Notes: generated by a model not told the origin, from the letters alone. A stretch of DNA of 64,000 bases from Candidatus Latescibacterota bacterium (GCA_965221775.1 CBDCSU010000006.1:32001-96000), one strand, 5' to 3'. Counted from the stretch's first letter, positions 2,327 through 28,438 are shown. Program-made: numbers and translations.

Positions 2327-2352
2327 CAGACCGGAGGGCCCTTCACTAAATC
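2323..2352 (+). promoter_or_regulatory. putative sigma70 promoter (TTGACA, weak -10 TAAATC)
   Basis: Perfect TTGACA at 2323-2328 overlapping the upstream stop codon; AT-rich CTAAATCT 17-18 nt downstream. The -10 match is poor. Confidence 0.3.
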
Positions 2353-2414
2353 TCGCCCTGACCCGCCCTCGCAGCGGTAGACCCGCGGCCCCGAGACGGC
2401 CGCAGAGACGACCG

Positions 2415-5400
2415 ATGCCAGCGCCTGATTCCCGCCCCCACTCCCTCGCCCCCTGGCTGCTCATCGCGGCCATCGCCTGGGCCCTGATCCCACCCGATCC
2501 CGCCCAGGCCCAGCGTCGTACGGGCTACCGGCTCACCCAGGACGCCATCGTCGTCGACAGCCACCGGCACTGGCAGCGGTGGAGCGTGCCCGTTCACGCC
2601 GTCGACCTGGACCGCGATGGCACCGCGAGGCCCCACCGGTTCCGCGATCGCTTCAACATCCTCGACGACCGCGAGACCTTCACCCGCACCCTGCCCGGGC
2701 TGAAGAGGAAGAAGGGCGAGACGGCGATCCTGAACGTGGACAGCACCGAGACCCTCGACGTGCGCGGCGAGATCATCCTCGACCGCAAGGACAACCCGAT
2801 CTACACCTATTTCCTGCGTCCCGGGATCAGCCGCGTCGGCTCGAACCCGGAGGCCGCCGCCAATGTCCTCGACGGCGATCCGAGCACCTATTGGGAGCCC
2901 GACCCCCGCGACCCCGTCGACGACTGGTGGCTGGAGATCGACCTGGGGCGGGTCGTCCCGGTGGACACGCTGCGGCTCCACTTCGTCGAGGAGGACCTCG
3001 GCGATCCCTTCCGCCAGTTCCGCCTCCTCGCCGCCCCCGATCAGGAACCCGTCACCCAGGACGCCGACCGCATCGACTTCTTTCGCGTCGGGGGCACCGC
3101 GGCGCCGAACGAGAGCCGGCGCACCTTCTCCTTCGACTTCCCGCGGGACAGGTCCAGCGCCGAGTGGACGGGACGGATGGTGCAGACGATACGGGTCGTG
3201 GTCACCGATTCGCGTCAGGGGCGCGGCCAGCTCCTCGACGGCGAGGAGGCCTGGCTCGCCCTGGACCCGGGGGACCGCGGCGACATCCTCTACTACATCC
3301 GTGACCTGGCCGGCACGGAGGAGCCGGTGGAGCGGGAGGTCTACGAGTCCCTCGGCACCGACCGCCAGGGGCGCCGCGACTACTACCGGCGTGAACGCCC
3401 GCGCCTGGCCGACATCGAGATCTGGGGAGCGGGGGACAACATCAGCCCCGGCATCATCGAGGGCGGCGGCAGCATCTTCCTCACGGGCGGCACCTTCGCG
3501 CCCGGCCCGGGCTTCGACGGCGATTACTCCACCAATTTCCTGCACCTCGTCTGGTCGCCCACGATCGACCGCGGGGTCCTGACCGTCGACCTGGCCGCCA
3601 CCTTCTGGCTCGACGCCATGCGCATATCCACCTCCCGCCCGCGGCCCTACATCGACGGCTACATCGTGCGCGCGTCGGACGGCTCTCTCGACGCCAACGG
3701 CCGGATCAAGTGGACGCGGATCAGCCCGCGCAGCCGGGAGGACAACAGCGTCTCCGGCTTCCGGAATCTCCTCGACCCGTACGACCTGCCGCCGCTGCGC
3801 TTCCTGGAGGTGAGCATCGTCTCCGTCGACCCGAGGCGGCGCGGAGGCTACAACACCGGCCCCACCATCGCCGAGTATCAGCTCTACTCGAAGGGACATC
3901 CCGCGGAGGTCCTGTTGACCTCCGACCTCATCGAGCTGCCCGGGCCGCGCCACTTCGGCGCCATCACCTGGGATGGCGACGTGCCCCCCGGCACCGGCAT
4001 GGAGATCCGCACCCGATCCGGCGACCTGCTGGGCCGGATCGTGCGCTACTTCGACAAACAGGGACAGGAGATCGCCTTCACCGCCTGGAAGAACCTCATC
4101 GGCAGCTTCAAGGGCCCGGTGGACACAACCCTCGTGCCCACCGCCGGGTGGTCCTCCTGGAGCCGGGCCTATGAGCGCCAGGGAGACCGCGTGACCTCGC
4201 CGGGGCTGCGCCGCTTCGCCCAGATCCAGGTGCGCCTGACCACGACCGACCGGGACCTCGCCTCCGCCATCCGCTCGATCCGCATCGAGCTCCTCGACCC
4301 GGTGGCCGAGCGCATCCTGGCGGAAATCACGCCGACGGAGGTCCCCGCCGTGGGTGTCCTCGACACCTTCGACGTCTTCATGCAACCGACCTTCATCTCG
4401 AGGCCGGAGGCCAGCCTGGGCTTTGACGAGGTCCTGCTGGCCATGCCCGCCTCCGGCCGCATGGAGCTGATCGAGGTCGAGGTCGACGGCGGCCAGGAGG
4501 GAGGTCGGCGCCACTTCCGCCGCGGGGGCGACGGCGGCTACGCCGACGGCGGCGGGAGTCGCCTGACCGTCTTCCGGCAGCAGGCCGACTCGATCTGGGT
4601 GCGCCTGCCCGAGGCGGTGACGCTGCTGCCCGACACCAGCCGGGCCTACTACCGGATTACCGCCGACAGCACCCAGGTCCCGGTGACCCAGGACGGCATC
4701 CCCCTGTCGGCCGCCTCGTGGGGACTGCTCGACGACGACGAGCAGGGGAGAGTCCTCTACTTCAGGAGGCTCGAGTCCGGGGAGCTGGAGGAGACCGACC
4801 AGCGATCATGGGAGGAACTGGACGAGAGCGAGCGGCTGGCGCGCTACTTCCGCGTGCTGGAGGGAGACGGCGCCCAGTACCCCTTCGACGAACGCGGCGA
4901 CTCCCTGGACGCCAGCGACTACTCCCGTCTCTCCAGCCAGGAGCGCGGCCGCGTCGTCGGCCCGGGCCCCCGGGTGCGCGTCCGCTTCCAGGCCCCCGTG
5001 CTCCTCAACGGCACCACCCTCGGCCTGGCGGTGCGCAACGCGGGGGTGGACCCGGACGCGAGTTGGCAGAGCGTGGAGGCCGGCGATGCGGTTCCGGAGA
5101 TGGAGTCGAATACCCTGACCCTCTCCGTCCCCCTGGACGGCAAGGCGGTGGAAGACGTGAGGATCTCACCGAATCCCTTCTCGCCGAATGGGGATCTGAT
5201 CAACGACCGCACCGAGATCGGCCTGTCCGTCTTCCGCATCACCGATGAGCGCAGCCTGCGGGTGAGCATCCACACCCTGGCCGGCCGCCGGGTCTGGCAG
5301 CAGGAGCAGACCGTCACCCCCGGATTGCGGTCCATCTCGTGGGATGGACGCGACGACAGGGGGAACCTCGTTCCCCCGGGGATCTACCTGGTCAAGCTGC

Positions 5401-5465
5401 ACCTCGACATCGACAGCAGAGACTCGGGCAGATCCGTGGTGCGCACCCTGGCCGTCGCCTATTGA
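2415..5465 (+). CDS. large secreted protein (~1016 aa): discoidin/F5-8-like domains + C-terminal FlgD Ig-like domain
   Basis: Start re-called at ATG 2415 (signal peptide ...LLIAAIAWALIPPDPAQA). DGDPSTYWEP...WWLEIDLG is discoidin-like. C-terminus ISPNPFSPNGDLIND...WDGRDDRGNLVPPGIYLVKL...LAVAY. Confidence 0.8.
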   Translation: MPAPDSRPHSLAPWLLIAAIAWALIPPDPAQAQRRTGYRLTQDAIVVDSHRHWQRWSVPVHAVDLDRDGTARPHRFRDRFNILDDRETFTRTLPGLKRKKGETAILNVDSTETLDVRGEIILDRKDNPIYTYFLRPGISRVGSNPEAAANVLDGDPSTYWEPDPRDPVDDWWLEIDLGRVVPVDTLRLHFVEEDLGDPFRQFRLLAAPDQEPVTQDADRIDFFRVGGTAAPNESRRTFSFDFPRDRSSAEWTGRMVQTIRVVVTDSRQGRGQLLDGEEAWLALDPGDRGDILYYIRDLAGTEEPVEREVYESLGTDRQGRRDYYRRERPRLADIEIWGAGDNISPGIIEGGGSIFLTGGTFAPGPGFDGDYSTNFLHLVWSPTIDRGVLTVDLAATFWLDAMRISTSRPRPYIDGYIVRASDGSLDANGRIKWTRISPRSREDNSVSGFRNLLDPYDLPPLRFLEVSIVSVDPRRRGGYNTGPTIAEYQLYSKGHPAEVLLTSDLIELPGPRHFGAITWDGDVPPGTGMEIRTRSGDLLGRIVRYFDKQGQEIAFTAWKNLIGSFKGPVDTTLVPTAGWSSWSRAYERQGDRVTSPGLRRFAQIQVRLTTTDRDLASAIRSIRIELLDPVAERILAEITPTEVPAVGVLDTFDVFMQPTFISRPEASLGFDEVLLAMPASGRMELIEVEVDGGQEGGRRHFRRGGDGGYADGGGSRLTVFRQQADSIWVRLPEAVTLLPDTSRAYYRITADSTQVPVTQDGIPLSAASWGLLDDDEQGRVLYFRRLESGELEETDQRSWEELDESERLARYFRVLEGDGAQYPFDERGDSLDASDYSRLSSQERGRVVGPGPRVRVRFQAPVLLNGTTLGLAVRNAGVDPDASWQSVEAGDAVPEMESNTLTLSVPLDGKAVEDVRISPNPFSPNGDLINDRTEIGLSVFRITDERSLRVSIHTLAGRRVWQQEQTVTPGLRSISWDGRDDRGNLVPPGIYLVKLHLDIDSRDSGRSVVRTLAVAY

Positions 5466-5502
5466 AGGCCCAGGCCTCTTGAAGCCAAATCAGGAGAGAC
5501 CC

Positions 5503-8178
5503 GTGTCCCCAAGGAAGACCCTGATCCACCTGGCCACCCTCGGCGCCCTCGGCCTCCTGGCGCCGGCAGCGCCCGCCGCCGCCCAGGACTACGGCGCACG
5601 CATGGGAGACATCCAGCGCGGCGGCGAGGTCTCCTTTCAGCCCCAGGGTCCGGGTGTGCTCCACGGCGCCCTCGACCCGGCCGTCCGCAGGTGGTACGTC
5701 CCCCAGGAGCTGTTCAACGAGTACCGCTGGCGGCAGTGGGATTACTCGAACTACGCCCGCGACCACTACCAGCGGTACGTCAGCGTCACCCGCGAGGGCG
5801 ACTTCTACTACGATCTCTACGGCAACTTCGTCACCAAGGGCTGGCTGATCTTCAACAACTCCCAGACCCAGCCCAAGCAGTTCGGCTCGTCGGTGCTCAA
5901 GAGCGCCAACTTCAGCCGCTGGTTCGACGGCGTCCTGATCTCGAGCGACTCCAAGGGGCAGCACCACTATGCCCTGACCATGGGCGCCAAGATCCGCACG
6001 ACCCTGACGCCCATGACCTTCTCCAAGCCCCAGTGGGACGGCGTGCAGTTCGACTATGCCTCCGACAAGTACCAGGGCACGGTCCTCTACTCCCGCCTCA
6101 GCCGCACCGGCGGCAGCAGCACGAACGACCAGGAGTCGCTGGTGACCAACCTCACCTCCCTCGTCGGCGGCCGCGGCACGGTGCAGGTGGGCGACTTCGC
6201 CACCCTGGGACTGACAGCCGTCAACTCGCACCAGTCCAACACCCTCATCGACGGCTTCACCGGCAACCCCATCAGCGGCGAGCTCACCGTCGACCAGAAC
6301 AAGACCCTGTCCCTCATCGAGGTGATCCTGCGCGACGACTCCCCCGAGGACGGCGGCGGCGCATCCTTCTTCCCCGCCGGTTCGGACATCATCATCACCT
6401 TCGACGACGGCAGCGTCGACCGGGGCAAGCAGATCGGCTTCGCGCCGGTCATCGAGGGCGGCTTCGAGCGCGACGGCTACCTGGCCGCCGACGGCCCCGA
6501 GGAGATCCGTCTGCGCTACAACTTCGACAGCCCCGGTTTCGTCAACCACGCCAGCGGCTCGAAGGAGGAGATCGTCGGTATCGAGTTCCGCTATGTCCTG
6601 GGCAACGACTACCAGGTGTGGATGACCTCCGACAACCAGCTCAACCAGTCGGAGGGCAACGTGGCGCTCCTGGTGACCCAGGCGGAGGGCAACGTCCAGG
6701 ACAACACCAACCTGCGGATCGTCTCCTTCGAGTACGGGCTGCCCACGGCCACCCAGATCTGGGGCGCCACCCTGGAGTTGAAGAAAGTCGCCGGTTTCGA
6801 CGTCTACGGCGAGTACGACCTCAGCTACAACTACCGCAAGTACCCGAGCGTGGTGAGGAAGGGCCACCGCACCGCCTCCGGAATCCGCGGCGACCGCGCT
6901 GCCGAGGCCTGGATGGTCAACATCTCCCGCAACCGCTATCCGTGGTTCGCCTGGGGAGAGCTCTACAGCATGCACCCGCGCTACTCGACCAGCACCTACG
7001 TCGCCCAGGGCGACGGCTTCATCGATTACGAGGACAAGCGCATCCACGTAGTCGAGCTGGTGGAGGACAACGACGACCAGGACCAGTTCCCGGACACGGT
7101 GCGCAAGGACTGGCAGGCCGGAGATCCCACGGTCTTTCCCGGCTGGGACGAAAACAACGACTTCATCTCGGACTTCAACCAGAACGACAACCGCTTCATC
7201 AGCAACTCGATCCCCGACTACGACGAGCCCTTCCTGCGCCACAACGTGGACCGCCCCGAGTTCCTGTACGGGGTAGACCTGAACAACAACTTCTGGATCG
7301 ACCGCTTCGAGAACGACGAGGAGCCCGACTATCCGTACCGGCGAGACCATCGGGGCTTCAACCTCTACGGGGGCGTGAACGTCACTCCCGACGTCCGAGT
7401 CAGCGTCGGCATCCTGCGCGAAGGGCTGATCTCCTCGAACCAGCGGAACAACGCCGACTACGCCCTCCTCAGCATCGACCGGGACGTGGCCGGCTGGGGC
7501 CGGTTTCGCCTCTTCGACATGATCAAGTCGGTGAAGGACGACATCCCCAACGAGCTGGTGCAGTGGCTGCCGAACGCCAACATCCGCACCGGCGAGGCGA
7601 CCAAGATCGAGGACCTCCTGCTGGCGCGCGACGCCATCGTCAACTCCCTGTGGGCGGGCCACGCGTACGACTACCGGGGACTGAAGACGGACAACTTCCT
7701 GAAGTGGGATCTCTTCCAGTCCCGCCTCGACGCCGAGGAACGCTCGCGGCTGAGCCAGCGGAAGACGAACTACTTCTTCGGGGTCATCAACCGCGTCAGC
7801 TACCGCTTCGACGTCGGCCGGCTCCGCTTCGAGCCGCGGTGGAAGAGCATCTTCCGACACCAGACGATCGATGTCGTCTCCAACGAGCGGAAGCGCTCCC
7901 TCACCGAGCTCGGCGGCCTGCTGGTGGGCTTTCCCCTGCTGCGCTCCACCGACCTGCAGGCCGGCCTGGAGCTGACCCTCCACAACGACATGCTGCGCGA
8001 CTCGCGGGACTTCCGCGGCGTCGTCGGCGCCGTGCAGTTCACCAACCTGTCCGCCTACCTGGGCTACGGGGTGACGACCCAACTGGGCATGCAGATCGAT
8101 CGGCAGGTTCCCAAGGTGGGCGAAACTCTCACCATCAACACGATCTTCCTCTCGGCGTACGCCGGCATCGACCTGTAG
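5503..8178 (+). CDS. hypothetical exported protein (~891 aa), probable outer-membrane beta-barrel with Asp/Asn-rich Ca-binding-like insert
   Basis: GTG 5503 follows an AGGAGAG RBS. Signal peptide (LGALGLLAPAAPAAA-Q), strong GC3 codon bias, many amphipathic aromatic beta-strand-like segments, ending INTIFLSAYAGIDL. The barrel call is inference. Confidence 0.7.
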   Translation: MSPRKTLIHLATLGALGLLAPAAPAAAQDYGARMGDIQRGGEVSFQPQGPGVLHGALDPAVRRWYVPQELFNEYRWRQWDYSNYARDHYQRYVSVTREGDFYYDLYGNFVTKGWLIFNNSQTQPKQFGSSVLKSANFSRWFDGVLISSDSKGQHHYALTMGAKIRTTLTPMTFSKPQWDGVQFDYASDKYQGTVLYSRLSRTGGSSTNDQESLVTNLTSLVGGRGTVQVGDFATLGLTAVNSHQSNTLIDGFTGNPISGELTVDQNKTLSLIEVILRDDSPEDGGGASFFPAGSDIIITFDDGSVDRGKQIGFAPVIEGGFERDGYLAADGPEEIRLRYNFDSPGFVNHASGSKEEIVGIEFRYVLGNDYQVWMTSDNQLNQSEGNVALLVTQAEGNVQDNTNLRIVSFEYGLPTATQIWGATLELKKVAGFDVYGEYDLSYNYRKYPSVVRKGHRTASGIRGDRAAEAWMVNISRNRYPWFAWGELYSMHPRYSTSTYVAQGDGFIDYEDKRIHVVELVEDNDDQDQFPDTVRKDWQAGDPTVFPGWDENNDFISDFNQNDNRFISNSIPDYDEPFLRHNVDRPEFLYGVDLNNNFWIDRFENDEEPDYPYRRDHRGFNLYGGVNVTPDVRVSVGILREGLISSNQRNNADYALLSIDRDVAGWGRFRLFDMIKSVKDDIPNELVQWLPNANIRTGEATKIEDLLLARDAIVNSLWAGHAYDYRGLKTDNFLKWDLFQSRLDAEERSRLSQRKTNYFFGVINRVSYRFDVGRLRFEPRWKSIFRHQTIDVVSNERKRSLTELGGLLVGFPLLRSTDLQAGLELTLHNDMLRDSRDFRGVVGAVQFTNLSAYLGYGVTTQLGMQIDRQVPKVGETLTINTIFLSAYAGIDL

Positions 8179-8211
8179 TCCCAAAGGCCGCCGGAGCCTC
8201 CCGACGCAGCG

Positions 8212-10431
8212 TTGGCCACCGATGTCTCCCGGAAGTCTGTCCGTTGGGCTCTCCTCGCCGGCGCCCTGGCCCTGGCCGTACGCCTCGGCTACCTCTTCGA
8301 GATCGACGAGACGCCGCTCTTCCACGCCCCCGTCGCCGACGCGGCCGCCTGCCTCGACGACGCCCGCTACCTGACGGAGGTCTCCTGGGCCGGCAGGCCC
8401 GAGCCCTTCCGCCAACCCCCGCTCTATCCGTATCTGCTCGCGGCCCTGTGCCCCGTGAGCGAGTCCCCGTGGCTGCCGCGCCTGCTGCAGGCGGCCCTTG
8501 GCGCTGCCTCGTGCGGGCTCCTCGTGGTGGTGGGCAGCCGTCTCCTCCCCGCCCCGGTGGCCGTGGCCGCCGGCCTGGCCGCGGCCCTCTACGGGCCCTT
8601 CGTCTACTTCGCGGGGGAGCTGCTGCCCGTCACGCTGGCGGCCTTCCTCGGTCTCCTCCTGCTGTGGACTCTGCTGCGCACGCCGGCCGCCCCCACCTGG
8701 AGGTGGGCCCTCCCCGGCCTGGTGCTGGGGCTCTCGGCCCTGACGGCGGCGGGCATCCTCCTGCTGGCCCCCTTCGTGCTCTGGTGGTTGTGGCGTCTGC
8801 CGCCGGAGAGGGAGGTGCGCGGACGGCGCTGGCAGCGGGGGTTGTGGTTCGCTGCCGGGTGCGCGCTGATAATGGCGCCGGTGACGGTGCGCAACCTGCT
8901 CCTGGGCGGCGACTTCGATCACGACCGCACCGTGGCCTTGGATACGCCCCGGCGGGAGGCGGCTATCGAGCCGCCCTCGGCGCGCTCCCGGTACTTCCAG
9001 GAGCGGTCCTGGGAGTTCGTCCGGGGCGAACCGTGGACCTGGGCCGGCCTCATGGCGCGCAAGGCGTACCTGTTCTGGCGGGGGGAGGAGATCCCCCGCA
9101 ACCTCGACCCCTACTTCGCCCGGGCCGATTCCCGGATCCTCGCGGTGCTCCTATGGGACTGGGGCCTGGCCTTCCCCTTCGGCCTGGTGGCGCCTCTGGC
9201 CCTCGCCGGGCTGGTGTTCTTCGTCCGCCGGCGGACAGGCGATGCCTCGGGCGCAGCTGCCGGGCGCACGCGGGAAGGGATCCTCGTCGTCGGTTTCGTC
9301 ACCGTGTACGCGGCGGCGGTCGTCCTGTCCCACGTCACCTCCCGCGATCGCCTGCCCGTGGTGCCACCCCTGTTGCTGATGGCCTGCTACGGCGCCTTCG
9401 TCCTGACACGGCGGCCGCTGCGCCGGGGGGCCCTCGCCGCAACCGCCCTCGCGGGGGTGGCCCTCAACGCCGGAACGACGCCCCTGGCGGTGGCCAGTCC
9501 CGCCCGCGAGCACTACTGGCGGGGCCAGGCCCTGGAGGCGCTGGAGAGGCCTGTCGGGGCCGCCCGGGAGTACCGCGCCGCCCTGCGCCTCGACCCCGCG
9601 CTGCCGGAGGCGCTGGCGCGCCTGGCCACCCTGGAGGTGGAGCGCGGCGATTCGCGCGCCGCCGTCGACCTCTACCGCCGCCGCCTGGCCATCGCTCCCG
9701 ACTCGGTGCCCCTCCGCCGGGACCTGGCCGACGCATTGCTCTCGGGCGGCCGTGCCGTCGAGGCGGTGGCCGAGTACGAGAGACTGGTGGAGATGCTCCC
9801 GGAGCGGGCGGACCTTCACGGCAGCCTGGCCTACGCCAGGCTCATGGCCGGGCGCCCCGGCACCGCCGCCCGGGCCTACCGCCGCGTCCTCGAGCTCAGA
9901 CCCGACTCCCTGCTCGTGCGCTACCAGCTCGCCCGGCTGCACCAGGCTCATGACCGCCCCGACTCGGCCGCCGCCCACTACCGGGTTCTGCTGCGGGCGG
10001 AGGGCCACCGGGCCCGGGCCCATCTGGGGCTCGGAGAGGCGCTCGTGGAGTTGGCTGCGGAGGGCCGCACCGGGGTGAGCCTGGAGGAGACGCCCCGGAC
10101 GCTGCGGGCGGAGCATCACCTGCGCAGGGCCGTTCAGCTCGACCCCGCGTCCCTCCACGCCCGCTGGAGCCTGGGCCTGTTGCTGGCCCGTCAGTCGCAC
10201 CGGTACGCCGACGCGGTGCCCCACTTCGAGCGCATCCTCGAGCTGGCTCCCGAGGACCACGCGGCCCACCTCTTCCTCGGGCACCTCTACCAGCGCACGG
10301 GCCGGACCGAGGCCGCCGCCACTCAGTTCGAGCGCTACTCGGCGGCCAAGCGGCGCCGGCGGATGCAGTCGGAGGCAGAGGCGCAGACGCGCGGCCTCGT
10401 GGAACAGCTCTTCGAGAAGGGTGGAGGGTGA
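8212..10431 (+). CDS. GT-C (ArnT/PMT-like, GT39/83) membrane protein fused to C-terminal TPR repeats
   Basis: About 10-12 hydrophobic segments, PFRQPPLYPYLLA motif near the N-terminus and SRxRLP motif, followed by several TPR repeats (AREYRAALRLDP, ARAYRRVLELRP, HFERILELAP). Confidence 0.75.
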   Translation: MATDVSRKSVRWALLAGALALAVRLGYLFEIDETPLFHAPVADAAACLDDARYLTEVSWAGRPEPFRQPPLYPYLLAALCPVSESPWLPRLLQAALGAASCGLLVVVGSRLLPAPVAVAAGLAAALYGPFVYFAGELLPVTLAAFLGLLLLWTLLRTPAAPTWRWALPGLVLGLSALTAAGILLLAPFVLWWLWRLPPEREVRGRRWQRGLWFAAGCALIMAPVTVRNLLLGGDFDHDRTVALDTPRREAAIEPPSARSRYFQERSWEFVRGEPWTWAGLMARKAYLFWRGEEIPRNLDPYFARADSRILAVLLWDWGLAFPFGLVAPLALAGLVFFVRRRTGDASGAAAGRTREGILVVGFVTVYAAAVVLSHVTSRDRLPVVPPLLLMACYGAFVLTRRPLRRGALAATALAGVALNAGTTPLAVASPAREHYWRGQALEALERPVGAAREYRAALRLDPALPEALARLATLEVERGDSRAAVDLYRRRLAIAPDSVPLRRDLADALLSGGRAVEAVAEYERLVEMLPERADLHGSLAYARLMAGRPGTAARAYRRVLELRPDSLLVRYQLARLHQAHDRPDSAAAHYRVLLRAEGHRARAHLGLGEALVELAAEGRTGVSLEETPRTLRAEHHLRRAVQLDPASLHARWSLGLLLARQSHRYADAVPHFERILELAPEDHAAHLFLGHLYQRTGRTEAAATQFERYSAAKRRRRMQSEAEAQTRGLVEQLFEKGGG

Positions 10432-10461
10432 GGACGGGCCCCGTGTGGCGGGACCCGTCCT
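10431..10461. terminator. hairpin between convergent genes (possible bidirectional terminator)
   Basis: AGGACGGG-C-CCCG/TGTGG/CGGG-A-CCCGTCCT inverted repeat spanning the gap between two convergent stop codons; no U-tract. Confidence 0.35.
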
Positions 10462-12547
10462 AGTAGACCACGGCGACGAGGCGGTGCACCTCGTCGTTCC
10501 GGTGGTCGCCGTCCACGGCGACCCTGAACAGGTAGAGACCGGGGGGGACGAGCTGTCCTGCGTCGTCGGTGCCGTCCCAGGCCTTGTCCTCGTAGCGCCC
10601 GTTGCTCTCCAACCCCTGGCTGACGACTCTCACCAGCCGGCCGCCCAGGTCATAGACCTTCAGCGCCACCTGGCGAGGCGCCTCCAGCGACAGCAGGCTG
10701 TAGCTCAGGGACATGGCGTCGTTGACGCCGTCGCCGTTGGGGCTGAAGGGATTGGGCCGCAGCTCCACCTGCCCGAGCAGCCGCCCGCCCAGCAGGGTCG
10801 GACTCAGGACCGTGGTGCCCGACAGGGCCGCTTCGTCCCCCGGGGCCAGCTGGCCCGTGTCGCCCCCCACCAGGGGCTGGATGGCCGGCTCACCCACCCC
10901 GTCCGCCGGCGACAGCTTGGCCGACCCGGTGAAATCGGTGCTGTAGGTGAGGACGTCGCTGCGGAAGTGGATGCGAACCTCGGTCCCGTCCCGAGAGATG
11001 GGGGGGAAGCCGATCTCGAAGCGGTCCTCCCTGACCTCCACGATGCGGAAGCCGCCCTCGTCGAGGGTGTCCGCAAGGCTGGAGAACGTCCGGCCGGATA
11101 CCGGCTGTCCCTCGCTGTCGAGGACCCGCACCTCGTCGATCGCCGCGACTCGCAGGGGCGTGCGGATCTCCAGGCGGTCGAATCCCAGCAGGTCCTCCGA
11201 CTCGAAGCGGGCCCGCACGGCGAGGGTGAAGGGCACCGCGCGGATCTCGTCCACCTCCCTCGGGAAGACCTCCGCCTTGAGCGAATCGGCCAGCGGCGAG
11301 CGGAGCACATCGAAGCTCAGGGACTCGATCGCCCTCGCCGCCTCCAGGTCGCTGCTCTCGAAGGCGATCTGGAACTGCATGTAGCGCCGCGGGCTCGGGG
11401 AGGTGATCAGGGCCCCCGGGGTGTTGGCCACCTCGGCGTCGAAGGGCGTGCTGAAGGGGCTCCAGTTGACCAGGTCGTCCTTGACGGGGCCGGCGTTCCA
11501 CTGCTGGCCCTGGGCGTCGAAGACGGGCAGCTTCTTGTACTCCTCCAGGCTCAACTCGAGCGAGGGGTCCTCCACCGACAGGGGGATCTCCTCCGGGTCG
11601 GCCTGCCCGTGGAGGGTCCGGGTGAAGACGAAGGGATCGGCGTCGGTGCCGGTGCGGGTGCGGATGCTCACCGCCGAGAACCGGGGGTCTCCCAGGACCT
11701 GCTCCGTCCAGCGGAGCTGGTGCCACACGGCCGGCTGTCCCGCGTCGAAGATGTCGGAGACGTAGGCGGCCGTGGCCAGGAACCCGGTGCCGAAGACCTC
11801 GAACTCGTCGATCTCGTAGGAGATCGTCGACTTGGAGCGCAGGCGGATGTGCTGAACGTACCGCGGCGGGTCGAGCCGCACATCGACGACGGGTTCCTTG
11901 TTCTCCTCCTCCGCCGCCACCGGCTCGCCCCAGATCGGCAGGCCCGCCTGGGTGAGGGCGAGGCCGTCGTTCGTGTACAGCTCGAAGGAGCGCAGGAAGT
12001 CGTTCTGGAACGGTGTCGCCGGCGCTATCTGCACCGTGTTGCGCGGATAGAAGCGGATCCTCTCGACTCCGAAGCGGCCCCCCAGGTTGAGGATGACCAG
12101 GATACCGAGGGAGTTGAGGTTCTTGCGCTCGAAGGCTTCCAGCTCCCCGCCCGGGGTGATCAGCTCCTCCAGGGCCTGCTTGAGGTCGAGGGGCTTGAAG
12201 GTGCCGCTGAAGTCGAAGACGTTGGGAGCGGTGATCTCACCGCCGCGCTCGAGGGTGCCGTGGGCCACGTTCTGGCCGGGCGCGATGCGCAGGGGAAGGA
12301 TGGCGCCGGGGTGGTCCTGGCTGTCGAAATCGAGGAGGGCTCCCGGGGCGTTGCCCTCGAGGAGGTTGTCCGACTCCAGCAGGGAGCGGTGCCGGGCGGG
12401 GATCGTGGCGACCACGGCGGAGCCCCCTCCGGCCCAGCCGAACTCGCCGCCGGCGCCGATGGTGACCGTCTCCGCAGCCGGCGCGGCCTCCGACAGGCCG
12501 ATGCCGGCCAGGACCGCCGCGGCGATGAGAGGAGATGTGCGATTCAT
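10460..12547 (-). CDS. secreted protein (~695 aa) with C-terminal FlgD Ig-like domain; paralogue of 2415..5465 and 12672..14825
   Basis: Start re-called at ATG 12547 (MNRTSPLIAAAVLAGIGLSEAAPAA). Motifs IRFYPR, IRTRTG, NWSPFS, SPSPRRYMQ, GFDRLEI, LRPNPFSPNGDGVND...WDGTDDAGQLVPPGLY...VAVVY. Confidence 0.8.
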   Translation of the reverse strand: MNRTSPLIAAAVLAGIGLSEAAPAAETVTIGAGGEFGWAGGGSAVVATIPARHRSLLESDNLLEGNAPGALLDFDSQDHPGAILPLRIAPGQNVAHGTLERGGEITAPNVFDFSGTFKPLDLKQALEELITPGGELEAFERKNLNSLGILVILNLGGRFGVERIRFYPRNTVQIAPATPFQNDFLRSFELYTNDGLALTQAGLPIWGEPVAAEEENKEPVVDVRLDPPRYVQHIRLRSKSTISYEIDEFEVFGTGFLATAAYVSDIFDAGQPAVWHQLRWTEQVLGDPRFSAVSIRTRTGTDADPFVFTRTLHGQADPEEIPLSVEDPSLELSLEEYKKLPVFDAQGQQWNAGPVKDDLVNWSPFSTPFDAEVANTPGALITSPSPRRYMQFQIAFESSDLEAARAIESLSFDVLRSPLADSLKAEVFPREVDEIRAVPFTLAVRARFESEDLLGFDRLEIRTPLRVAAIDEVRVLDSEGQPVSGRTFSSLADTLDEGGFRIVEVREDRFEIGFPPISRDGTEVRIHFRSDVLTYSTDFTGSAKLSPADGVGEPAIQPLVGGDTGQLAPGDEAALSGTTVLSPTLLGGRLLGQVELRPNPFSPNGDGVNDAMSLSYSLLSLEAPRQVALKVYDLGGRLVRVVSQGLESNGRYEDKAWDGTDDAGQLVPPGLYLFRVAVDGDHRNDEVHRLVAVVY

Positions 12548-12554
12548 GCCCGCT

Positions 12555-12583
12555 AGGAAAAACCGCCGCGGGAGGACTGTCAA
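12555..12583 (-). promoter_or_regulatory. putative sigma70 promoter giving a leaderless transcript
   Basis: Minus strand TTGACA (12583-12578), 17 nt spacer, TTTCCT (12560-12555), 7 nt, then ATG 12547. No Shine-Dalgarno. Confidence 0.45.
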
Positions 12584-12671
12584 TTGCCTTGTCCCCCCGG
12601 CATGGCCGCCGTACCGTTTTGCCCCGAAGCCGGTCCGGAGCCCGGCCTTGCCTGACGGAGAGACCTCGCCC

Positions 12672-14825
12672 ATGCGACACCTCCTCGACTGCTGCCTCAT
12701 CCTCGGCCTTTCCCTCCAGGCCGGCGCCGCCTTCGCCCGAACCGAGTACGTCCTCGGCGGCGCCGAGGGCAACCCCTGGCAGGCGGCCCTGTCCGAAGAC
12801 GCCGCCGGCGAGTTCGTCGTCTTCGACGAGGAGGGTGCGGCGGTGCGCCGCGTCGCCGTGCCCACAACCCCCTACGGCGAGGGGGGTGACCGCGTTGTCG
12901 AGTACGAGGCCTCTCCGGGCAGCATCCTCCCCCTGTACCTGCATCCCGAACAGAACCTGGCCCTCACCGATCCCGACTCCCCCGAGATCAGGATCCCCCT
13001 TCCCATCACCCGTGGACTCGCCTGGACGACGGACGGCTGCTCCGCCATCGACGATCAGATCCGGGCGGTGAAGAGACAGTTCGACGGCGATGTCACCACC
13101 GCCCATTTCCGCCGGTTCACCCCGGGGACCAGCATCTTCGCGGGCGGCGGCCGCATCGTCGCCGGGGTCACCGGCGAGGGTTGGAAGAACGCCGTGGTCC
13201 TGAACTTCGGCGCCGCCGTCCCCGTCAACCGGATCCGGTTCTTCCCGCGCCTGAGCCGCGTCGAGGACCGGCTGCTGATCGAGGAGCTGCAGGAGCCGAG
13301 CCCCCCCCTCGAGGAGTTCGGCGAGAGCAGCTTCGCCGCCAACTTCGTCGAGGGCTACGAGATTCGGGTGGCCGACGACAGCCAGCGCTTCGCCAACAGC
13401 CCCTGCGACGCCGTCGGCTTCTCCCGCGGCCTGCGCTGGATCCGGACCGGCGACGCCAGTCTCGAGGTCCTGGAATCCAGGCCCGAGAACCTCGAGCGTG
13501 TCGTCGACCTGACCTTCCCCACCCGGTCGGTGCGCTACATGACCTTCAAGACCTTCCCCCTGCGCAACTGGGAGGTGGCGGAGTTCCAGGTCTTCGGCGA
13601 GGGCTACGTGGAGCACACCTCCTTCCGGACGCAGATACTCGACTTCGGCCAGGACTCGGGGAGCGCCGTCAACTGGGGCAAGATCCGCTGGAGCGGCGAG
13701 GCCCCCGAGGGCACGCGCGTCGAGATCCGCACGCGCACGGGGCACACACCGGACCCCAACTTCTACGTCGCCGAGAGCGTCAACGGCGACATCCGCAGGA
13801 TTACCACCGAGGAGTACTTCGCCATCGACGCCACGGGGCGTCTCGACCCCCGGCCCGACGTGGACAACTGGAGCTTCTGGTCGCCGCCGTACACCTTCGA
13901 GGCGGGCCTGCGCGACTCCTCGGCCGCCGCCGAGAGCTGGGAGGACGGCACCTCACTGCTGTCCCCGGGGCCGAGCCGGTACCTGCAGATCGACATCCAG
14001 CTGTACAGCACCTTCACCCGGGCGGCGCGCCTGGACCAGTTGTGGCTCCAGTTCAGCGAGTCCCCCCTGGCGCGGGAGGTCCTGGGCGAGATCTGGCCCA
14101 CGGAGGTGACCTCCTTCGATCCCACCCCCTTCACCTACGTGGTGCGGCCCGACTTCGAAGCCTCGGACCTCGGCTTCAACCGCCTGGAGATCCTCACCCA
14201 CAGTCCCGTCGATCCCGATCGCCTCTCCCTCTCCGTCGACGGCGCGCCGGTCGACTTCGATCTCCATCCCCCCGACCTGCGGGAAGACCGGCTCATCCTG
14301 TCCTTCGACGAGCTCAAGGGACGCTCCGACCGCCTGAAGCCGATCGAGGCGACCTTCGAGGTTCCGGTCCTGCGCTATGGAGCCGAGTTCCGCGGCTGGG
14401 TCTTCCACAGCGACGACCCGGACCGCATCCGCCAGCAGGTTCGTCCCGGCAACGCGACCTTCCGGTTCGGCGGCAACGTGCTGGCCGTGGCCACGCCCCT
14501 GGAGGGCGGTCTCCTCGGCGATCTGACCGCTTCGAGCCGGGCCATCTCCCCCAACGGGGACGGCGTGAACGACGAGCTCCTGCTCACCTACGAGCTTCGC
14601 CAGTTGACCGTGCAGCGGCCCGTGCAGCTGCGCATCTACGATCTGGGGGGCCGCCTGGTCCGCGTCCTGGAGCCCCGCTCCGGGGCCAGCGGCCTCGGCA
14701 GCCAGAGCTGGAACGGAAGGGACGGCGCAGGTGAGTTGGTGGCGCCCGGAACCTACCTCTACGAAGTAGCCCTCAGCGCCGAGGAAACCGAACGCCGGGT
14801 CGGCGTGGTGTCCGTGGTGTACTGA
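12672..14825 (+). CDS. secreted protein (~717 aa) with C-terminal FlgD Ig-like domain; third paralogue
   Basis: ATG 12672 after GGAGAG; signal peptide ending AGAAFA. Motifs FDGDVTT, IRFFPR, IRTRTG, NWSFWSPPY, SPGPSRYLQ, GFNRLEI, ISPNGDGVND...WNGRDGAGELVAPGTY...VSVVY. Confidence 0.8.
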   Translation: MRHLLDCCLILGLSLQAGAAFARTEYVLGGAEGNPWQAALSEDAAGEFVVFDEEGAAVRRVAVPTTPYGEGGDRVVEYEASPGSILPLYLHPEQNLALTDPDSPEIRIPLPITRGLAWTTDGCSAIDDQIRAVKRQFDGDVTTAHFRRFTPGTSIFAGGGRIVAGVTGEGWKNAVVLNFGAAVPVNRIRFFPRLSRVEDRLLIEELQEPSPPLEEFGESSFAANFVEGYEIRVADDSQRFANSPCDAVGFSRGLRWIRTGDASLEVLESRPENLERVVDLTFPTRSVRYMTFKTFPLRNWEVAEFQVFGEGYVEHTSFRTQILDFGQDSGSAVNWGKIRWSGEAPEGTRVEIRTRTGHTPDPNFYVAESVNGDIRRITTEEYFAIDATGRLDPRPDVDNWSFWSPPYTFEAGLRDSSAAAESWEDGTSLLSPGPSRYLQIDIQLYSTFTRAARLDQLWLQFSESPLAREVLGEIWPTEVTSFDPTPFTYVVRPDFEASDLGFNRLEILTHSPVDPDRLSLSVDGAPVDFDLHPPDLREDRLILSFDELKGRSDRLKPIEATFEVPVLRYGAEFRGWVFHSDDPDRIRQQVRPGNATFRFGGNVLAVATPLEGGLLGDLTASSRAISPNGDGVNDELLLTYELRQLTVQRPVQLRIYDLGGRLVRVLEPRSGASGLGSQSWNGRDGAGELVAPGTYLYEVALSAEETERRVGVVSVVY

Positions 14826-14862
14826 AGGTGCGAAGGGGCGCTGGCAGGCCCGTCCAGAAATC

Positions 14863-14891
14863 TTGATTTTCTGCCGGCCCGTTGGTAAGTT
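14863..14891 (+). promoter_or_regulatory. putative sigma70 promoter with extended -10
   Basis: TTGATT, 17 nt spacer, TGgTAAGTT, in an AT-enriched intergenic gap. Confidence 0.5.
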
Positions 14892-14966
14892 GGTGCCCTG
14901 CATTGGAGTCTCCTATCCCCCCAAGAGCGGCCTGTGGCCGCATTTCGCAATCAGGAGGATCCCGCC

Positions 14967-15857
14967 ATGAAACGCTTTGTCCTGTGTGCGTCGCTGGTCG
15001 TCGCCGTATCCGCCGGTGCCCACAATCCGCCGGGAGAGCTGTTCTTCGCCGCTCAGTTCCCCGACAACCTCGTGCCCCAGATGGACGGCGATCTGTCCGA
15101 CTGGGACATCGTGCCCATCGATGGCCCATACTGGGTCGGCAACGACCGGCTCTACTCCCCCGTGGCCGACATCCAGCCGGTGGGCCGGGGCGAGATCGAC
15201 GCCAGCGATATCAACATCCGCAACATCATCGGCTGGAACGACAACCTCAACAAGCTCTACTTCGCCACCTCCGTGTTCGACAACGTCCACAACCTGGACC
15301 GCGAGAACCCCTCGGCCTTCTGGCAGGACGACGCCTGGGAGGTGGAGGTCAATCCCGACCACACGCCCACGGAGGAGCACAACCTCGAGGGCGAGCCAGC
15401 CAACAATTTCAGCTACAAGTGGGCCGTGCCCCCTGTGGAAGGCGCCTACCAGTTCTACCGTCCCAACCGGGCCATCCCCTGGTTCGTCGACGGTTCCCAG
15501 TGGATCGAGTTCGGCTGGGACTTCGACGGCGACCAGTTCGGCGAGAGCACCTACTACTACGAACTGGCCATCACCCCCATCCTGAGCATGCCCAGGGGTG
15601 ACGACGTCGACGAGAGCAGCGTCGTCGTCCACGACCTCTCGGAGGAAGAGGTCATCCACATCTCCGTGACCGTAGGCGACTTCGATGAGCCTTGCACCGA
15701 GTGCGCCCTGGAGAGCTACCAGGGCTTCTGGACGATGTCGCCCGAGAGCTGCTGCACCGCCACCAACGACGTCGTCATGGCCCAGGTGGAGCCCTCCATC
15801 GCCGCCCTGACCGCCGTCGAGGACATCAGCTGGGGCCAGATCAAGGCCGCCCACTGA
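14967..15857 (+). CDS. secreted acidic CBM9/DOMON-like protein with C-terminal TAVExxSWGxIK tail
   Basis: ATG 14967 after AGGAGG; signal peptide MKRFVLCASLVVAVSAGA. PQMDGDLSDW, IGWND...LYF and DDAWEVEV resemble CBM9/DOMON-like sugar-binding folds. Ends TAVEDISWGQIKAAH. Confidence 0.7.
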   Translation: MKRFVLCASLVVAVSAGAHNPPGELFFAAQFPDNLVPQMDGDLSDWDIVPIDGPYWVGNDRLYSPVADIQPVGRGEIDASDINIRNIIGWNDNLNKLYFATSVFDNVHNLDRENPSAFWQDDAWEVEVNPDHTPTEEHNLEGEPANNFSYKWAVPPVEGAYQFYRPNRAIPWFVDGSQWIEFGWDFDGDQFGESTYYYELAITPILSMPRGDDVDESSVVVHDLSEEEVIHISVTVGDFDEPCTECALESYQGFWTMSPESCCTATNDVVMAQVEPSIAALTAVEDISWGQIKAAH

Positions 15858-15868
15858 ACAAGCACCGC

Positions 15869-17581
15869 TTGCGCCGCCGCATCCGTGGCAGCGACTCCTC
15901 CCCCGGGCGCCTGCTCCAGGCGCCCGGGGGCTTTTTCTTTGCCCTGGCGACAATCCCCTCCCTGCTGTCGTGCGCCGACCCGGTCCCGGACCGGGCAACG
16001 GAGGGAGGCCCGCTGTTCGTCGACGTGGCCGACGATGCGGGGCTGCACCGGCCCCACGTGGGCGGCACGGCGGAGAAGGGCTACATCGTGGAGGCCAAGG
16101 GTGGAGGCGTCGCCGTCCTCGACGCCGAGGGCGACGGCGATCTCGATCTCTACTGGGTGAATGGGGCGACGCTGGAAGATCCCCTGGGGGCGGGAAACGC
16201 CCTCTACCGCAACGACGGCAAGGAGGGGTTCCGCGATGTGGCCGCCTCCGCGGGCGTCGTGGGCCGCGGCTGGGGCATGGGGGCCCTCGCCGCCGACTTC
16301 GACAACGACGGTGACTCCGACCTCCACGTCACCTGCCTCACCCACAACCTGCTGTTCCGCAACGACAGCGGCCGCTTCGCGGAGTGGGGGTCCCGGGCCG
16401 GTGTGGACCTGCCCCTGTGGAGCACGGGAGCAGCGGCCGGCGACTACGACCTGGACGGGGATCTCGACCTCTACGTGGCCAACTACGTGGACTTCGACCC
16501 CGACAGCGTCGCCCACCTCGGCACCCGCTGGAAGGGTGTTCCCGCCTTCATCGGCCCCCTGGGCCTGCGCGCCCTCCCCGACCGCCTCTACCGCAACGAG
16601 GGCGACCGGTTCACCGACGTGAGCGCTCCCTCCGGCGTGACCGGCGTGGACCCGGGTTACGGGCTGGGCGTGCTCTTCGCGGACCTCGACGTCGACGGCG
16701 ATGCCGACCTCTACGTGGCCAACGATTCGTCGCCCAACTTCCTCTTCAGCAACGATTCGCGTGGCCGGTTCAGCGAGACGGGCCTGGGGGCGCGCGCAAG
16801 CCACGGCGCCATGGGCAACGCCCAGGCCGGCATGGGGGTCGCCGCCGGCGACTTCGACGGCGACGGACTCCCCGACCTGCTGGTGACCAACTTCGACGAC
16901 GACTACAACACCCTCTACCAGAACCGGGGCGGCGCCACCTTCGAGGATGTCAGCTTTGCCGCCGGCCTGGGGCGCGAGGGCCTCCCCTTCGTCGGTTTCG
17001 GGGCCGCCTTCCTCGACTACGACCGCGACGCCGACCTCGATCTCTTCGTCGCCAACGGCCACGTCTACCCCCAGATCGACACGTCGGGCACGAACTCGAC
17101 GTACGCCCAGGCCGATCACCTCTTCGCCAACGTCTCGGGCCGCTTCGAGCGGGTCCTCCACGACGGTTCGGACCCCTTCGGCCCGCCTCGAGTCAGCCGC
17201 GGAGCGGCGGCCCTCGACTTCGACGACGACGGCGACCTCGACCTGTTCGTGGCCCACCTCGACGACAGGCCCGCCCTCTACCGCAACGACGCGCCGGGAG
17301 GCAACTGGCTGGGACTCCGGCTGGTGGGTGTTCGCAGCAACCGGGAGGGGATCGGGGCCCGGGTGGCCGTCCACGCCGGAGGCCAGCGGCAGGTTCGTGA
17401 GAGCCGGCGCGGCAGCAGCTTCCTCGGCAGCGAGGACCCACGCCTCCACTTCGGGCTGGGCGCGGCCACTCTCGTCGACAGCCTGACCGTCCACTGGCCC
17501 GGGGGCGGCGTGCAGGTCCTCACCGCCGTCTCGCCGAATCAGTACCTGGTTGTGACACAAGCGGCTTCCGCCAGCCGTTGA
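15869..17581 (+). CDS. CRTAC1-family FG-GAP repeat + ASPIC/UnbV lipoprotein
   Basis: Likely start TTG 15869 (MRRRIRG...FFFALATIPSLLSC; lipobox LLSC). Repeated DFDNDGDxDL/LYRN motifs, QAGMG, SRGAAALDFDDDGDLD, and C-terminal SNREGIGARV...LHFGLG...VHWPGG. Start uncertain. Confidence 0.85.
   Translation: MRRRIRGSDSSPGRLLQAPGGFFFALATIPSLLSCADPVPDRATEGGPLFVDVADDAGLHRPHVGGTAEKGYIVEAKGGGVAVLDAEGDGDLDLYWVNGATLEDPLGAGNALYRNDGKEGFRDVAASAGVVGRGWGMGALAADFDNDGDSDLHVTCLTHNLLFRNDSGRFAEWGSRAGVDLPLWSTGAAAGDYDLDGDLDLYVANYVDFDPDSVAHLGTRWKGVPAFIGPLGLRALPDRLYRNEGDRFTDVSAPSGVTGVDPGYGLGVLFADLDVDGDADLYVANDSSPNFLFSNDSRGRFSETGLGARASHGAMGNAQAGMGVAAGDFDGDGLPDLLVTNFDDDYNTLYQNRGGATFEDVSFAAGLGREGLPFVGFGAAFLDYDRDADLDLFVANGHVYPQIDTSGTNSTYAQADHLFANVSGRFERVLHDGSDPFGPPRVSRGAAALDFDDDGDLDLFVAHLDDRPALYRNDAPGGNWLGLRLVGVRSNREGIGARVAVHAGGQRQVRESRRGSSFLGSEDPRLHFGLGAATLVDSLTVHWPGGGVQVLTAVSPNQYLVVTQAASASR
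15900..15940 (+). terminator. Rho-independent terminator
   Basis: Perfect 14-bp stem CCCCCGGGCGCCTG/CTC/CAGGCGCCCGGGGG followed by CTTTTTCTTT. Confidence 0.8.
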
Positions 17582-17606
17582 CAGGTCGAACCCCTCCCCG
17601 TAACGT
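17578..17606 (+). promoter_or_regulatory. sigma70 promoter
   Basis: TTGACA (17578-17583), 17 nt spacer, TAACGT, about 25 nt upstream of the next ATG with a GGGAGGA RBS. Confidence 0.6.
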
Positions 17607-17630
17607 GGTCGCAACGCCAGGGAGGATCCG

Positions 17631-18416
17631 ATGCTTGCCGAGACCGTCCACCGCCGACTGCCTACCTGCCTCCAGGGCCTGCGGGCTGCCACGGCGGTCC
17701 CAGCCCTCGCCTTGGCGCTGCTCACCGCCTGCGGGGGCGGCTACCACCACTACGCCGGCCCCTTGCGTCCCATCGACGACCAGGACCCCGCCATGACGAT
17801 CGCCGATGACGGCGGCGTCACCTACGTGCAAGGCCGGCTCGAGGTCCGGATGCGGCCCCTGACCGATGAAGAGCTGAACCGGCAGTTCGCCTCCCTGTCG
17901 AACTCGGGACCGCGGTCGACCAACCCCTACACCTTCGGCGACCACCAGTTCTACGAGGGCCAGGAGACCCGCCAGCGCTTCACGGTCTTCAGCCTCGGCG
18001 TCAAGAACTACGCCTACCCCAAGGTGCAGCTCGACCCGACACGCATCGAGCTGGCCGCGTCCAACGGGCGCACTTACTGGAGCCTCCGCCACAAGCAGCT
18101 CGAGCGCTACTACCGGGCCTACGCCATCGGCTTCCGGGGCAACGAGTACGCCCGGTTCCGGGCGCGCCAGGATCTGCTGCTCAACACGATGTTCCCCTCC
18201 GAGCCGATCTTCAGCGGCCAGGAGGTCGGCGGATTCGTGGTCTTTCCCGCCCTCCATCCCGACGTGGACCACATGCGGGTCGTCCTCCACGGTGTCAACC
18301 TGCGCTTCGACTACCGCAACGAGCCGGTCGAGAGCGTCGACATCGCCTACGAGTTCGTGCGCGACGTGGGCCGCCTCTACGCCGACGGCACCGTGGAGCT
18401 CACGGCGCGGGACTGA
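17631..18416 (+). CDS. hypothetical lipoprotein
   Basis: RBS GGGAGGA; lipobox LALLTAC; high GC3; no recognised domain. Confidence 0.75.
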   Translation: MLAETVHRRLPTCLQGLRAATAVPALALALLTACGGGYHHYAGPLRPIDDQDPAMTIADDGGVTYVQGRLEVRMRPLTDEELNRQFASLSNSGPRSTNPYTFGDHQFYEGQETRQRFTVFSLGVKNYAYPKVQLDPTRIELAASNGRTYWSLRHKQLERYYRAYAIGFRGNEYARFRARQDLLLNTMFPSEPIFSGQEVGGFVVFPALHPDVDHMRVVLHGVNLRFDYRNEPVESVDIAYEFVRDVGRLYADGTVELTARD

Positions 18417-28342: not shown

Positions 28343-28368
28343 TTGAGCTGGGCTCCTTGGTTTACCGG

Positions 28369-28438
28369 AGGGACTGCACCAGGACCACCAGGGTCAGGGT
28401 CTCAGGGACTGCACCAGGACCACCAGGGTCAGGGTCTC
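28369..28438. repeat. perfect 35-bp tandem duplication
   Basis: AGGGACTGCACCAGGACCACCAGGGTCAGGGTCTC at 28369-28403 and again at 28404-28438. Confidence 0.95.

Follow-up and report, generated by a model that had tools for sequence, protein, structure and literature searches.

The question raised by this locus is why genes for secreted proteins that share one C-terminal domain should stand beside a gene for a very large barrel-like protein. The locus is a block of nine genes (A–I), called in frames supported by third-position G+C through position 18416 of the window, a stretch of 64,000 nucleotides (GCA_965221775.1 CBDCSU010000006.1:32001-96000) from an uncultured, sponge-associated Latescibacterota bacterium; plain positions are those of the window, and prefixed ones, such as C6, refer to the genome. 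Our best reading takes the block as a single copy of a cell-surface cassette that Latescibacterota carry in multiple copies, with a conserved core of one to three lectin-like cargo proteins, one to three barrels of about 900 amino acids and then a protein with PMT_2 and TPR domains. The cassette probably displays sugar-binding-type proteins on the cell surface.

As to function, the balance tips slightly towards a cargo-plus-cognate-barrel module, present in many copies, which by analogy would work as type-B cargo of type IX secretion (the T9SS) do with PorP/SprF proteins; what we infer in this reading is the binding and the function.

Cargo tails and their linkage to barrel genes

The window is about 70% G+C, and reading frames were therefore picked by third-position G+C, together with start and ribosome-site context. 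The genes that matter most for the argument are as follows.

B, 2415..5465, plus strand: 1016 amino acids; secreted cargo; the signal peptide is followed by several beta-sandwich domains, discoidin/CBM32-like, and the type-B-like C-terminal domain (CTD) ends ...LAVAY
C, 5503..8178, plus strand: 891 amino acids; predicted outer-membrane barrel with a signal peptide; GTG start behind AGGAG
D, 8212..10431, plus strand: 739 amino acids; polytopic membrane protein; N-terminal half PMT_2-like (GT-C), C-terminal domain TPR
E, 10460..12547, minus strand: 695 amino acids; paralogous cargo whose CTD is type-B-like (…PNPFSPNGDGVND… AVVY); gene convergent with D
F, 12672..14825, plus strand: 717 amino acids; paralogous cargo whose CTD is likewise type-B-like; gene divergent from E across a 124-nt gap

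The original prediction had described three signal-peptide paralogues with the same C-terminal domain, and these are B, E and F. Their N-termini are signal-peptide-like as judged from the translations, and Pfam places a FlgD_ig/CHU_C domain at the extreme C-terminus of each (residues 919-997 of 1016 in B, 598-683 of 695 in E and 623-714 of 717 in F). B matches F5_F8_type_C, CHU_C and FlgD_ig; its tail scanned alone gives 29.8 bits for CHU_C and 28.5 bits for FlgD_ig, and in the full-length protein CHU_C reaches 25.0 bits (cut-off 27). FlgD_ig and CHU_C score 35 and 31.6 bits in E (cut-off 27), and 38.5 and 33.0 bits in F. The NCBIfam T9SS tail matches are sub-threshold in all three proteins, the type-B model TIGR04131 giving 21.4 bits in E and 19.9 bits in F (cut-off 35) and no match in full-length B. 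The AlphaFold2 model of B (alignment A2, 41 orthologues; pLDDT 80.2) is all-beta and multi-domain, and Foldseek matched it to fucolectin, neuropilin b1b2, CBM32 pairs, the N-domain of galactose oxidase and the CBM from a glycosidase of Akkermansia; that search gave no match to a catalytic fold.

A hidden Markov model grown from the B, E and F tails was run on the whole genome, and the tail-bearing proteins were clustered by their non-tail parts. The set comprises 118 domains in 115 open reading frames (ORFs), about 3% of genes. Its largest cluster holds 28 cargo proteins, including E and F, of which 26 are encoded within 10 kb of a barrel gene, and all 11 tail genes that lie directly upstream of a barrel fall in this family; none of the 21 members of the second cluster is near a barrel. 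The motif [ST]P[ND][GN]DG.[NY]D occurs in 24/28 of the cargo family, in 0/84 other tails and in none of a separate three-member family. The cargo family typically ends in ...VAVAY and the other tails in ...RKLLLLR after NYPNPFN.xT. Family models were compared on 27 of the 28 cargo tails (C4:821829 left out) and on 20 other tails, hand-picked from the 84 for being clear. At E<=0.01, CHU_C and FlgD_ig each match 27/27 cargo tails, and the type-B model TIGR04131 matches 21/27 of them versus 0/20 other tails; the type-A model TIGR04183 finds 20/20 other tails versus 12/27 cargo tails, the latter weakly. The two kinds of tail are homologous (hhalign probability 99.2%) and differ by a seven-residue insertion with the NGDG motif. 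Judged from sequence, the genome holds two tail classes, a type-B-like one found almost only at barrel loci and a type-A-like one never found there.

Linkage between cargo and barrel, which the original prediction had proposed for this locus, recurs both within the genome and elsewhere. Here, 11/20 barrel genes are preceded on their own strand by a tail-bearing ORF whose end is under 450 bp away, and 6 of the remaining 9 follow another barrel in tandem runs. The foreign set consists of 80 loci with 101 barrel genes that have at least 2.5 kb of upstream sequence; in 83/101 the end of a tail-bearing ORF on the barrel's strand lies no more than 400 bp upstream, and in 3/101 it lies further away. 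Among the adjacent foreign cargo proteins with trimmable starts (66), the motif is present in 51, and in 66/66 the last residue is aromatic and the one before it small or aliphatic; at least 44 of the adjacent foreign cargo are full-length B orthologues, at 37-66% identity. Set against tails on about 3% of genes, the adjacency at 11/20 and 83/101 barrels exceeds chance. The foreign-locus counts are also why the core is defined as cargo, barrel and PMT_2/TPR protein, usually accompanied by a SurA-like peptidyl-prolyl isomerase (PPIase) and a G-type protein.

Such linkage could have a simpler origin, in that the cassette may comprise co-regulated envelope genes, duplicated as a whole operon, whose products act side by side and form no direct cargo–barrel complex. 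All of the evidence is genomic, and duplication of the whole cassette would by itself give repeated adjacency. However, the adjacency is kept at identities of 37-66% for cargo and 51-93% for barrels, and also in the distant barrel subtype, and the barrel is tracked by tail class, not by protein family alone. We consider this explanation improbable, and continue with the cargo-plus-cognate-barrel module.

The barrel family and its companion genes

The protein encoded 3' of the largest cargo gene had been described as barrel-like, of about 890 amino acids and 37 bp away; the gap is exactly 37 nt, the protein has 891 residues, and its AlphaFold2 model (alignment A1, 56 homologues; pLDDT 71.8, pTM 0.72) bears out a large barrel. 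In the model some 26-28 long strands, counted from the strand list, form a beta-barrel over residues ~114-888, with an extra beta domain inserted at ~271-340. The N-terminal segment 19-113 (~90 residues) is of low model confidence, yet is among the best-conserved parts of the alignment. An Asp/Asn-rich segment at ~520-612, low in confidence over 535-583, holds about 30 invariant residues and is possibly a cluster of Ca2+-binding loops.

Pfam and NCBIfam scans of C returned nothing at E<=0.01, and thus no family of another function. The barrel-family profile matched no PDB sequence at E<=10, and in the ESM Atlas the nearest clusters were all unnamed, the nearest named one (DUF6029, at 0.88) being a lead only. 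Foldseek matched the model to large outer-membrane barrels at TM-scores of 0.2-0.3 (SlpA/SDBC, MtrB, FimD, LptD), and VIA-align to FhaC (Z 14.1), PgaA, CymA, TamA, a SusC-like chain (Z 9.7) and SprA (Z 9.2). Because these searches returned generic large barrels only, no fold family can be assigned. C is thus predicted to be a large membrane barrel of an undescribed, unassignable family. SlpA_C (PF21620) appeared weakly in 4/10 distant members of the family, at 16.8-21.7 bits (cut-off 35).

Two established identities for C were considered and rejected. It is set outside the PorP/SprF family because both sequence and size failed to fit: neither PF11751 nor TIGR03519 was matched by C at E<=0.01 or by 10 distant members at E<=1, and its 891 residues compare with about 300 in PorP/SprF barrels, whose family models have 273 and 292 positions. 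Nor does C have a Plug or TonB_dep_Rec match in Pfam, as a TonB-dependent or SusC-like transporter would; the genome has 25 ordinary Plug-domain receptors, all away from barrel genes by their coordinates.

Relatives of the barrel are numerous. A word-indexed search gave 993 at E<=0.001 among 8000 scored candidates; among the matches listed (120), the only name was 'hypothetical protein' of Candidatus Latescibacteria/Latescibacterota and Pfam domains were absent. An exhaustive search of 1.84 billion representatives gave 1019 matches at E<=0.001, 348 of them at E<=1e-30. The best 80 genomic loci with a barrel are labelled Latescibacter* in 65 cases, Gemmatimonad* in 12 and otherwise in 3. This genome has 20 copies in about 14 runs; the 12 close ones score 671-1519 bits and the 8 distant ones 223-325 bits. 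A complex prediction between barrel residues 27-891 (A1) and B tail residues 895-1016 (A2) scored 0.00 and, run without controls, counts neither way for binding.

The distant barrels were also seen to form runs of up to three, at C6:6819-19859, C5:358541-374624 and C3:5260-12353, each run being preceded by a cargo gene of the 28-member family and by a member of the three-protein family, which has two FlgD_ig domains.

A GT-C and TPR membrane protein had been predicted to follow the barrel, and D, 33 nt downstream of C, fits this description. Its TPR match is strong, and PMT_2 (PF13231), at 17.4 bits in D itself (cut-off 26.1), is matched in 21/24 orthologues at E<=0.01 (best 2e-12). Searching PDB with phmmer and the N-terminal 420 residues gave no match at E<=10, and the D family profile found TPR proteins only. 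Every D paralogue (6/6) is at most 15 kb from a barrel, and of the foreign barrels with enough downstream sequence, 62/76 have a D-like ORF beginning directly downstream; the PMT_2/TPR gene thus counts as a genuine core component of the cassette. In one sponge-metagenome DNA run, D has an in-frame skip of 33 bases (window 8967-9001), a strain-level length variant.

The remaining genes of the block are less uniformly associated with it.

A, 2..2326, plus strand: lipoprotein with a lipobox; TPR, FG-GAP beta-propeller repeats and UnbV_ASPIC (CRTAC1-type); the 5' end lies before the window
G, 14967..15857, plus strand: 296 amino acids; secreted, weakly CBM9-like; short tail TAVE..SWGQIKAAH
H, 15869..17581, plus strand: FG-GAP_3 and UnbV_ASPIC (CRTAC1-type) lipoprotein; TTG start, lipobox LLSC
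I, 17631..18416, plus strand: 261 amino acids; lipoprotein with lipobox LTAC, without known family

All had been listed in the original prediction, as CRTAC1/ASPIC lipoproteins at both ends, a SWGxIK-tailed protein and an orphan lipoprotein, and all are present; as members of the module they fared differently from the PMT_2/TPR gene. The 10-kb flanks of the 80 foreign loci contain a SurA-like PPIase in 70, a G-like gene in 60, an ASPIC gene in 30, an I-like gene in 2 and ExbB in 1. In this genome the zone within 15 kb of any barrel gene, which is 6.6% of the whole, holds 3/4 ExbB, 5/5 ExbD, 6/7 SurA-like PPIases and 3/3 DUF4159 genes. A (FG-GAP_3 6.7e-44, UnbV_ASPIC 3.7e-14, TPR_19 1.3e-09) has 11/14 paralogues in that zone and H (scanned from 15914; FG-GAP_3 2.3e-35, UnbV_ASPIC 2.8e-22; nothing in NCBIfam) has 11/15, and with 30/80 foreign loci these lipoproteins are loose companions. 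For H, a start at 15869 is more likely than at any site further upstream. I, for which Pfam and NCBIfam scans gave nothing, has 6/8 paralogues in the zone and is hardly linked elsewhere, as the count of 2/80 shows.

G matches CBM9_1 below the cut-off (E 0.0014) and no NCBIfam model, and 8/9 of its paralogues are in the zone. Its tail (window 15800-15857), TAV(E)..[STA]WG.[IVLM]K plus a few residues, lies in the last 25 residues of 26/3690 called genes and nowhere else in any of them; it has the appearance of a distinct C-terminal sorting tag that is as yet undescribed.

The cassette extends beyond the left edge of the window (a SurA-like PPIase and a TPR gene, C6:28869-31990) and is part of an island of about 50 kb (C6:1-50 kb), in which two tail-bearing genes, then three distant-type barrels, DUF4159 and an ExbB-ExbD-ExbD set are also found. 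On the 3' side of the block lie two unknown proteins, a CBM9 protein (20997-21758), another unknown protein and then Wzy/Wzz polysaccharide genes; the latter were seen as Wzy_C at 23994-24740 and Wzz/GNVR at 27146-28393 on the minus strand.

ExbB-ExbD(-ExbD) sets were observed within 15 kb of barrels at C6:27142-28727, C5:284369-285448 and C5:344125-345671, often with DUF4159 and large TPR proteins, and the sole strong TonB_C match stands beside the fourth ExbB (C6:342614-344767). The three sets may be TonB-less motors serving the barrel islands. They are not counted as core, because ExbB/ExbD occurs in just 1/80 foreign loci of this barrel subfamily.

These companions bear on the Sus-like glycan capture that the original prediction offered as its alternative. 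The barrel would then be a channel for solutes or oligosaccharides, perhaps gated by its N-terminal ~90 residues or by the inserted domain, and the cargo would be its surface binding partners, as SusD and surface glycan-binding proteins are for SusC. The resemblance of the cargo domains to CBM32, fucolectin and discoidin, with no catalytic fold, would suit such a role, as would the CBM9-type proteins within and beside the block, the predicted ~26-28-strand barrel with its extra domains, the roughly 14 barrel runs in one genome, and the concentration of ExbB and ExbD paralogues near barrels with the only canonical TonB_C beside the fourth ExbB. Against it, the barrel has neither Plug nor TonB_dep_Rec while ordinary Plug receptors are encoded elsewhere in the genome, ExbB/ExbD is nearly absent from the foreign loci, and 10 neighbours scanned at other copies of the cassette (TPR proteins, SurA-like PPIases, DUF4159, one GDSL esterase, one DUF4838, DUF6785 and an FtsX-type protein) include no named glycoside-hydrolase family. 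The alternative therefore gained little, and we hold it to be unlikely. On it, the many copies would be the Latescibacterota counterpart of polysaccharide-utilisation loci (PULs); import of this kind may well coexist with anchoring of cargo by a cognate barrel.

Type IX secretion in the host and the proposed mechanism

To our knowledge, experimental work on the T9SS has been confined almost entirely to Bacteroidota. A literature search found no publication joining Latescibacter* with type IX secretion or T9SS, nor one describing the module, and a review passage listing other Fibrobacteres–Chlorobi–Bacteroidetes (FCB) phyla as possible T9SS hosts leaves Latescibacterota unnamed in that passage (PMC11285876).

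The T9SS genes sought in the host were found in part. SprA_N is matched at 117 bits within a frame of 2192 amino acids, PorU twice over the cut-off (580 and 542 bits), and a PorV-like gene (148 bits, cut-off 250) stands beside one PorU. PF11751 (PorP/SprF) gave nothing in the whole genome, and TIGR03519 reached just 20.2 bits, on the PorV-like gene; since no PorP/SprF is detected in the host, the cargo-plus-cognate-barrel reading fits a non-Bacteroidota lineage. GldK is a partial match (101 bits, cut-off 350). Either the Gld proteins of motor and ring have diverged beyond the reach of models built on Bacteroidota, or the T9SS draws its energy in another way.

Across the 151 genomes sampled from the phylum, the barrel is found in 94 and B-type cargo in 80. 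In the family to which the host belongs, the barrel is present in 63/63 and barrel and B-type cargo each in 62-63/63, with 0/30 and 0/19 in the sister families f2 and f3; the barrel is also found in most genomes of ten other families. B-type cargo tracks the barrel by family except in one (0/13) and in one single-genome family (0/1), whose barrels match more weakly, with best E of about 1e-34 to 1e-95. SprA_N occurs in 143/151 genomes, including 62/63 other genomes of the host's family, all 63 of which have the barrel. PF11751 matches weakly (20-28 bits) in 29/151, with 0/63 in the host's family, 25/30 in barrel-less f2 and 0/19 in barrel-less f3, a pattern partly complementary to that of the barrel and suggestive only.

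The distribution of SprA bears on whether the giant barrel could itself be the export pore or usher for the upstream cargo, the tail targeting it directly and independently of SprA. The strict order of cargo then barrel would agree with this, as would a SurA-like chaperone within 10 kb in 70/80 loci, the near confinement of the type-B-like tail class to barrel loci, and the ushers FimD and PapC, and also LptD, among the better Foldseek matches. Those matches are generic, however, with TM-scores of 0.2-0.3, and SprA_N is present in nearly all of the barrel-bearing genomes of the host's family. The tail is, moreover, a homologue of the genome's type-A-like tails and of the tail of PorU, which points to a common T9SS route. 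A dedicated translocon consequently seems to us a poor prospect.

In the cargo-plus-cognate-barrel reading, Sec would export the cargo, and the CTD would then carry it through the SprA translocon. The cargo would next go to the barrel of the adjoining gene, which would retain it on the surface, and would bypass PorV, the presumed partner of type-A-like tails; the displayed discoidin/CBM32-like domains would bind glycans. The PMT_2/TPR protein might glycosylate cargo or barrel in the periplasm, and the SurA-like PPIase might chaperone the giant barrel. That the barrel would capture and hold cargo leaving through SprA is an argument by analogy, made because type-B cargo in Porphyromonas and Flavobacterium bind PorP/SprF-like proteins and depend on them, according to passages in two papers (PMC9143113; PMC12618676).

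Several observations weigh against this reading. The E and F tails fall short of the TIGR04131 cut-off (21.4 and 19.9 versus 35 bits), and type-B-like cargo tails also resemble PorU's own tail. An upstream cargo gene on the same strand is lacking at three barrels in this genome (C5:371958, C6:1349106 and C6:2582747) and at 15/101 foreign barrel genes. Cargo–partner pairs in Flavobacterium are one-to-one; here a single barrel is shared by several cargo genes, and tandem barrels number up to three at some loci. The GldL and GldM models found no match in the genome, although absence is not established, because the controls were silent too. C is also unlike the PorP/SprF proteins in being about three times larger, with ~26-28 predicted strands and no sequence or specific fold similarity to them. 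The module proposed in the original prediction has accordingly stood as regards the predicted barrel, the tight linkage, the presence of T9SS genes and the failure to detect a PorP/SprF protein, with binding, anchoring and secretion as its conjectural parts.

In a broader proposal, the ~900-amino-acid barrels would form a new class of T9SS partner, spread across the phylum, that anchors its cognate lectin-like cargo and also imports glycans; this would be a PUL-like means of capturing nutrients or host glycans, built from T9SS parts instead of SusC/SusD, with the tails as a cell-wide address code (PorV for type-A-like, giant barrel for type-B-like). We put this forward as a speculation that is unlikely to hold.

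The wider interest lies in an uncultured phylum with a clean genome-wide split of tail classes, one of them tied to a 20-copy barrel family without a match in Pfam, NCBIfam or PDB. If the barrels are anchors or shuttles, cognate-barrel sorting would predate the PorP/SprF family and exceed it in variety, and about 1000 representative clusters of 'hypothetical' proteins would gain a name. Seventeen sequencing runs hold at least half of the words of window 2415-10431, many of them labelled sponge metagenome, and one sponge-metagenome DNA run covers all of 1-18416 in near-identical contigs. Because the stretch is found in many sponge-metagenome runs, the displayed lectin-like proteins are candidates for symbiont–host or symbiont–food glycan recognition. 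Three metatranscriptome runs from two studies have short near-identical contigs on B, and one of the three also has a 535-base piece on C that differs at 18 positions and probably stems from a related strain. Since such libraries may contain DNA, the contigs are not taken as proof of transcription.

Comparison with known systems

The SlpA barrels of Deinococcus/Thermus (30 strands, PF21620) provide one comparison of fold, SDBC/SlpA chains being 3/4 of the best Foldseek matches to C (E 3.4e-10 to 3.3e-09). Unlike them, C has no SLH domain or coiled coil, its TM-scores to them are 0.18-0.24, and SlpA_C is not matched in C itself; the matches in distant family members cover ~80-100 residues and lie far under the 35-bit cut-off.

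With SusC/SusD PULs, the cassette shares the many diverged copies and the large barrel gene beside genes for surface proteins of glycan-binding type. It differs in having no Plug/TonB-dependent receptor domain and no SusD-like lipoprotein, in its reversed gene order, and in binding proteins that carry T9SS-type tails, not lipid anchors.

The closest counterparts are T9SS type-B cargo with their PorP/SprF partners, viz. SprB–SprF, PG1035–PorP–PorE and Fjoh_3952–Fjoh_3951. Departures from these Bacteroidota pairs include the lineage, Latescibacterota, the up to three cargo and up to three barrels per locus, tails that score under the TIGR04131 cut-off, and a conserved PMT_2/TPR protein and SurA-like PPIase that have no counterpart there. 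The TPR and beta-propeller lipoprotein A recalls the TPR/WD40 domains of PorE, as a resemblance only (passage in PMC12773672). What the cassette has in common with them is a CTD that matches CHU_C and, under the cut-off, TIGR04131, with a TPNGDGxND-type motif, a partner barrel gene directly downstream of the cargo gene, at just over half of the barrels here and most of those in foreign loci, several cargo–partner sets per genome, and a host with SprA, PorU and a PorV-like gene.

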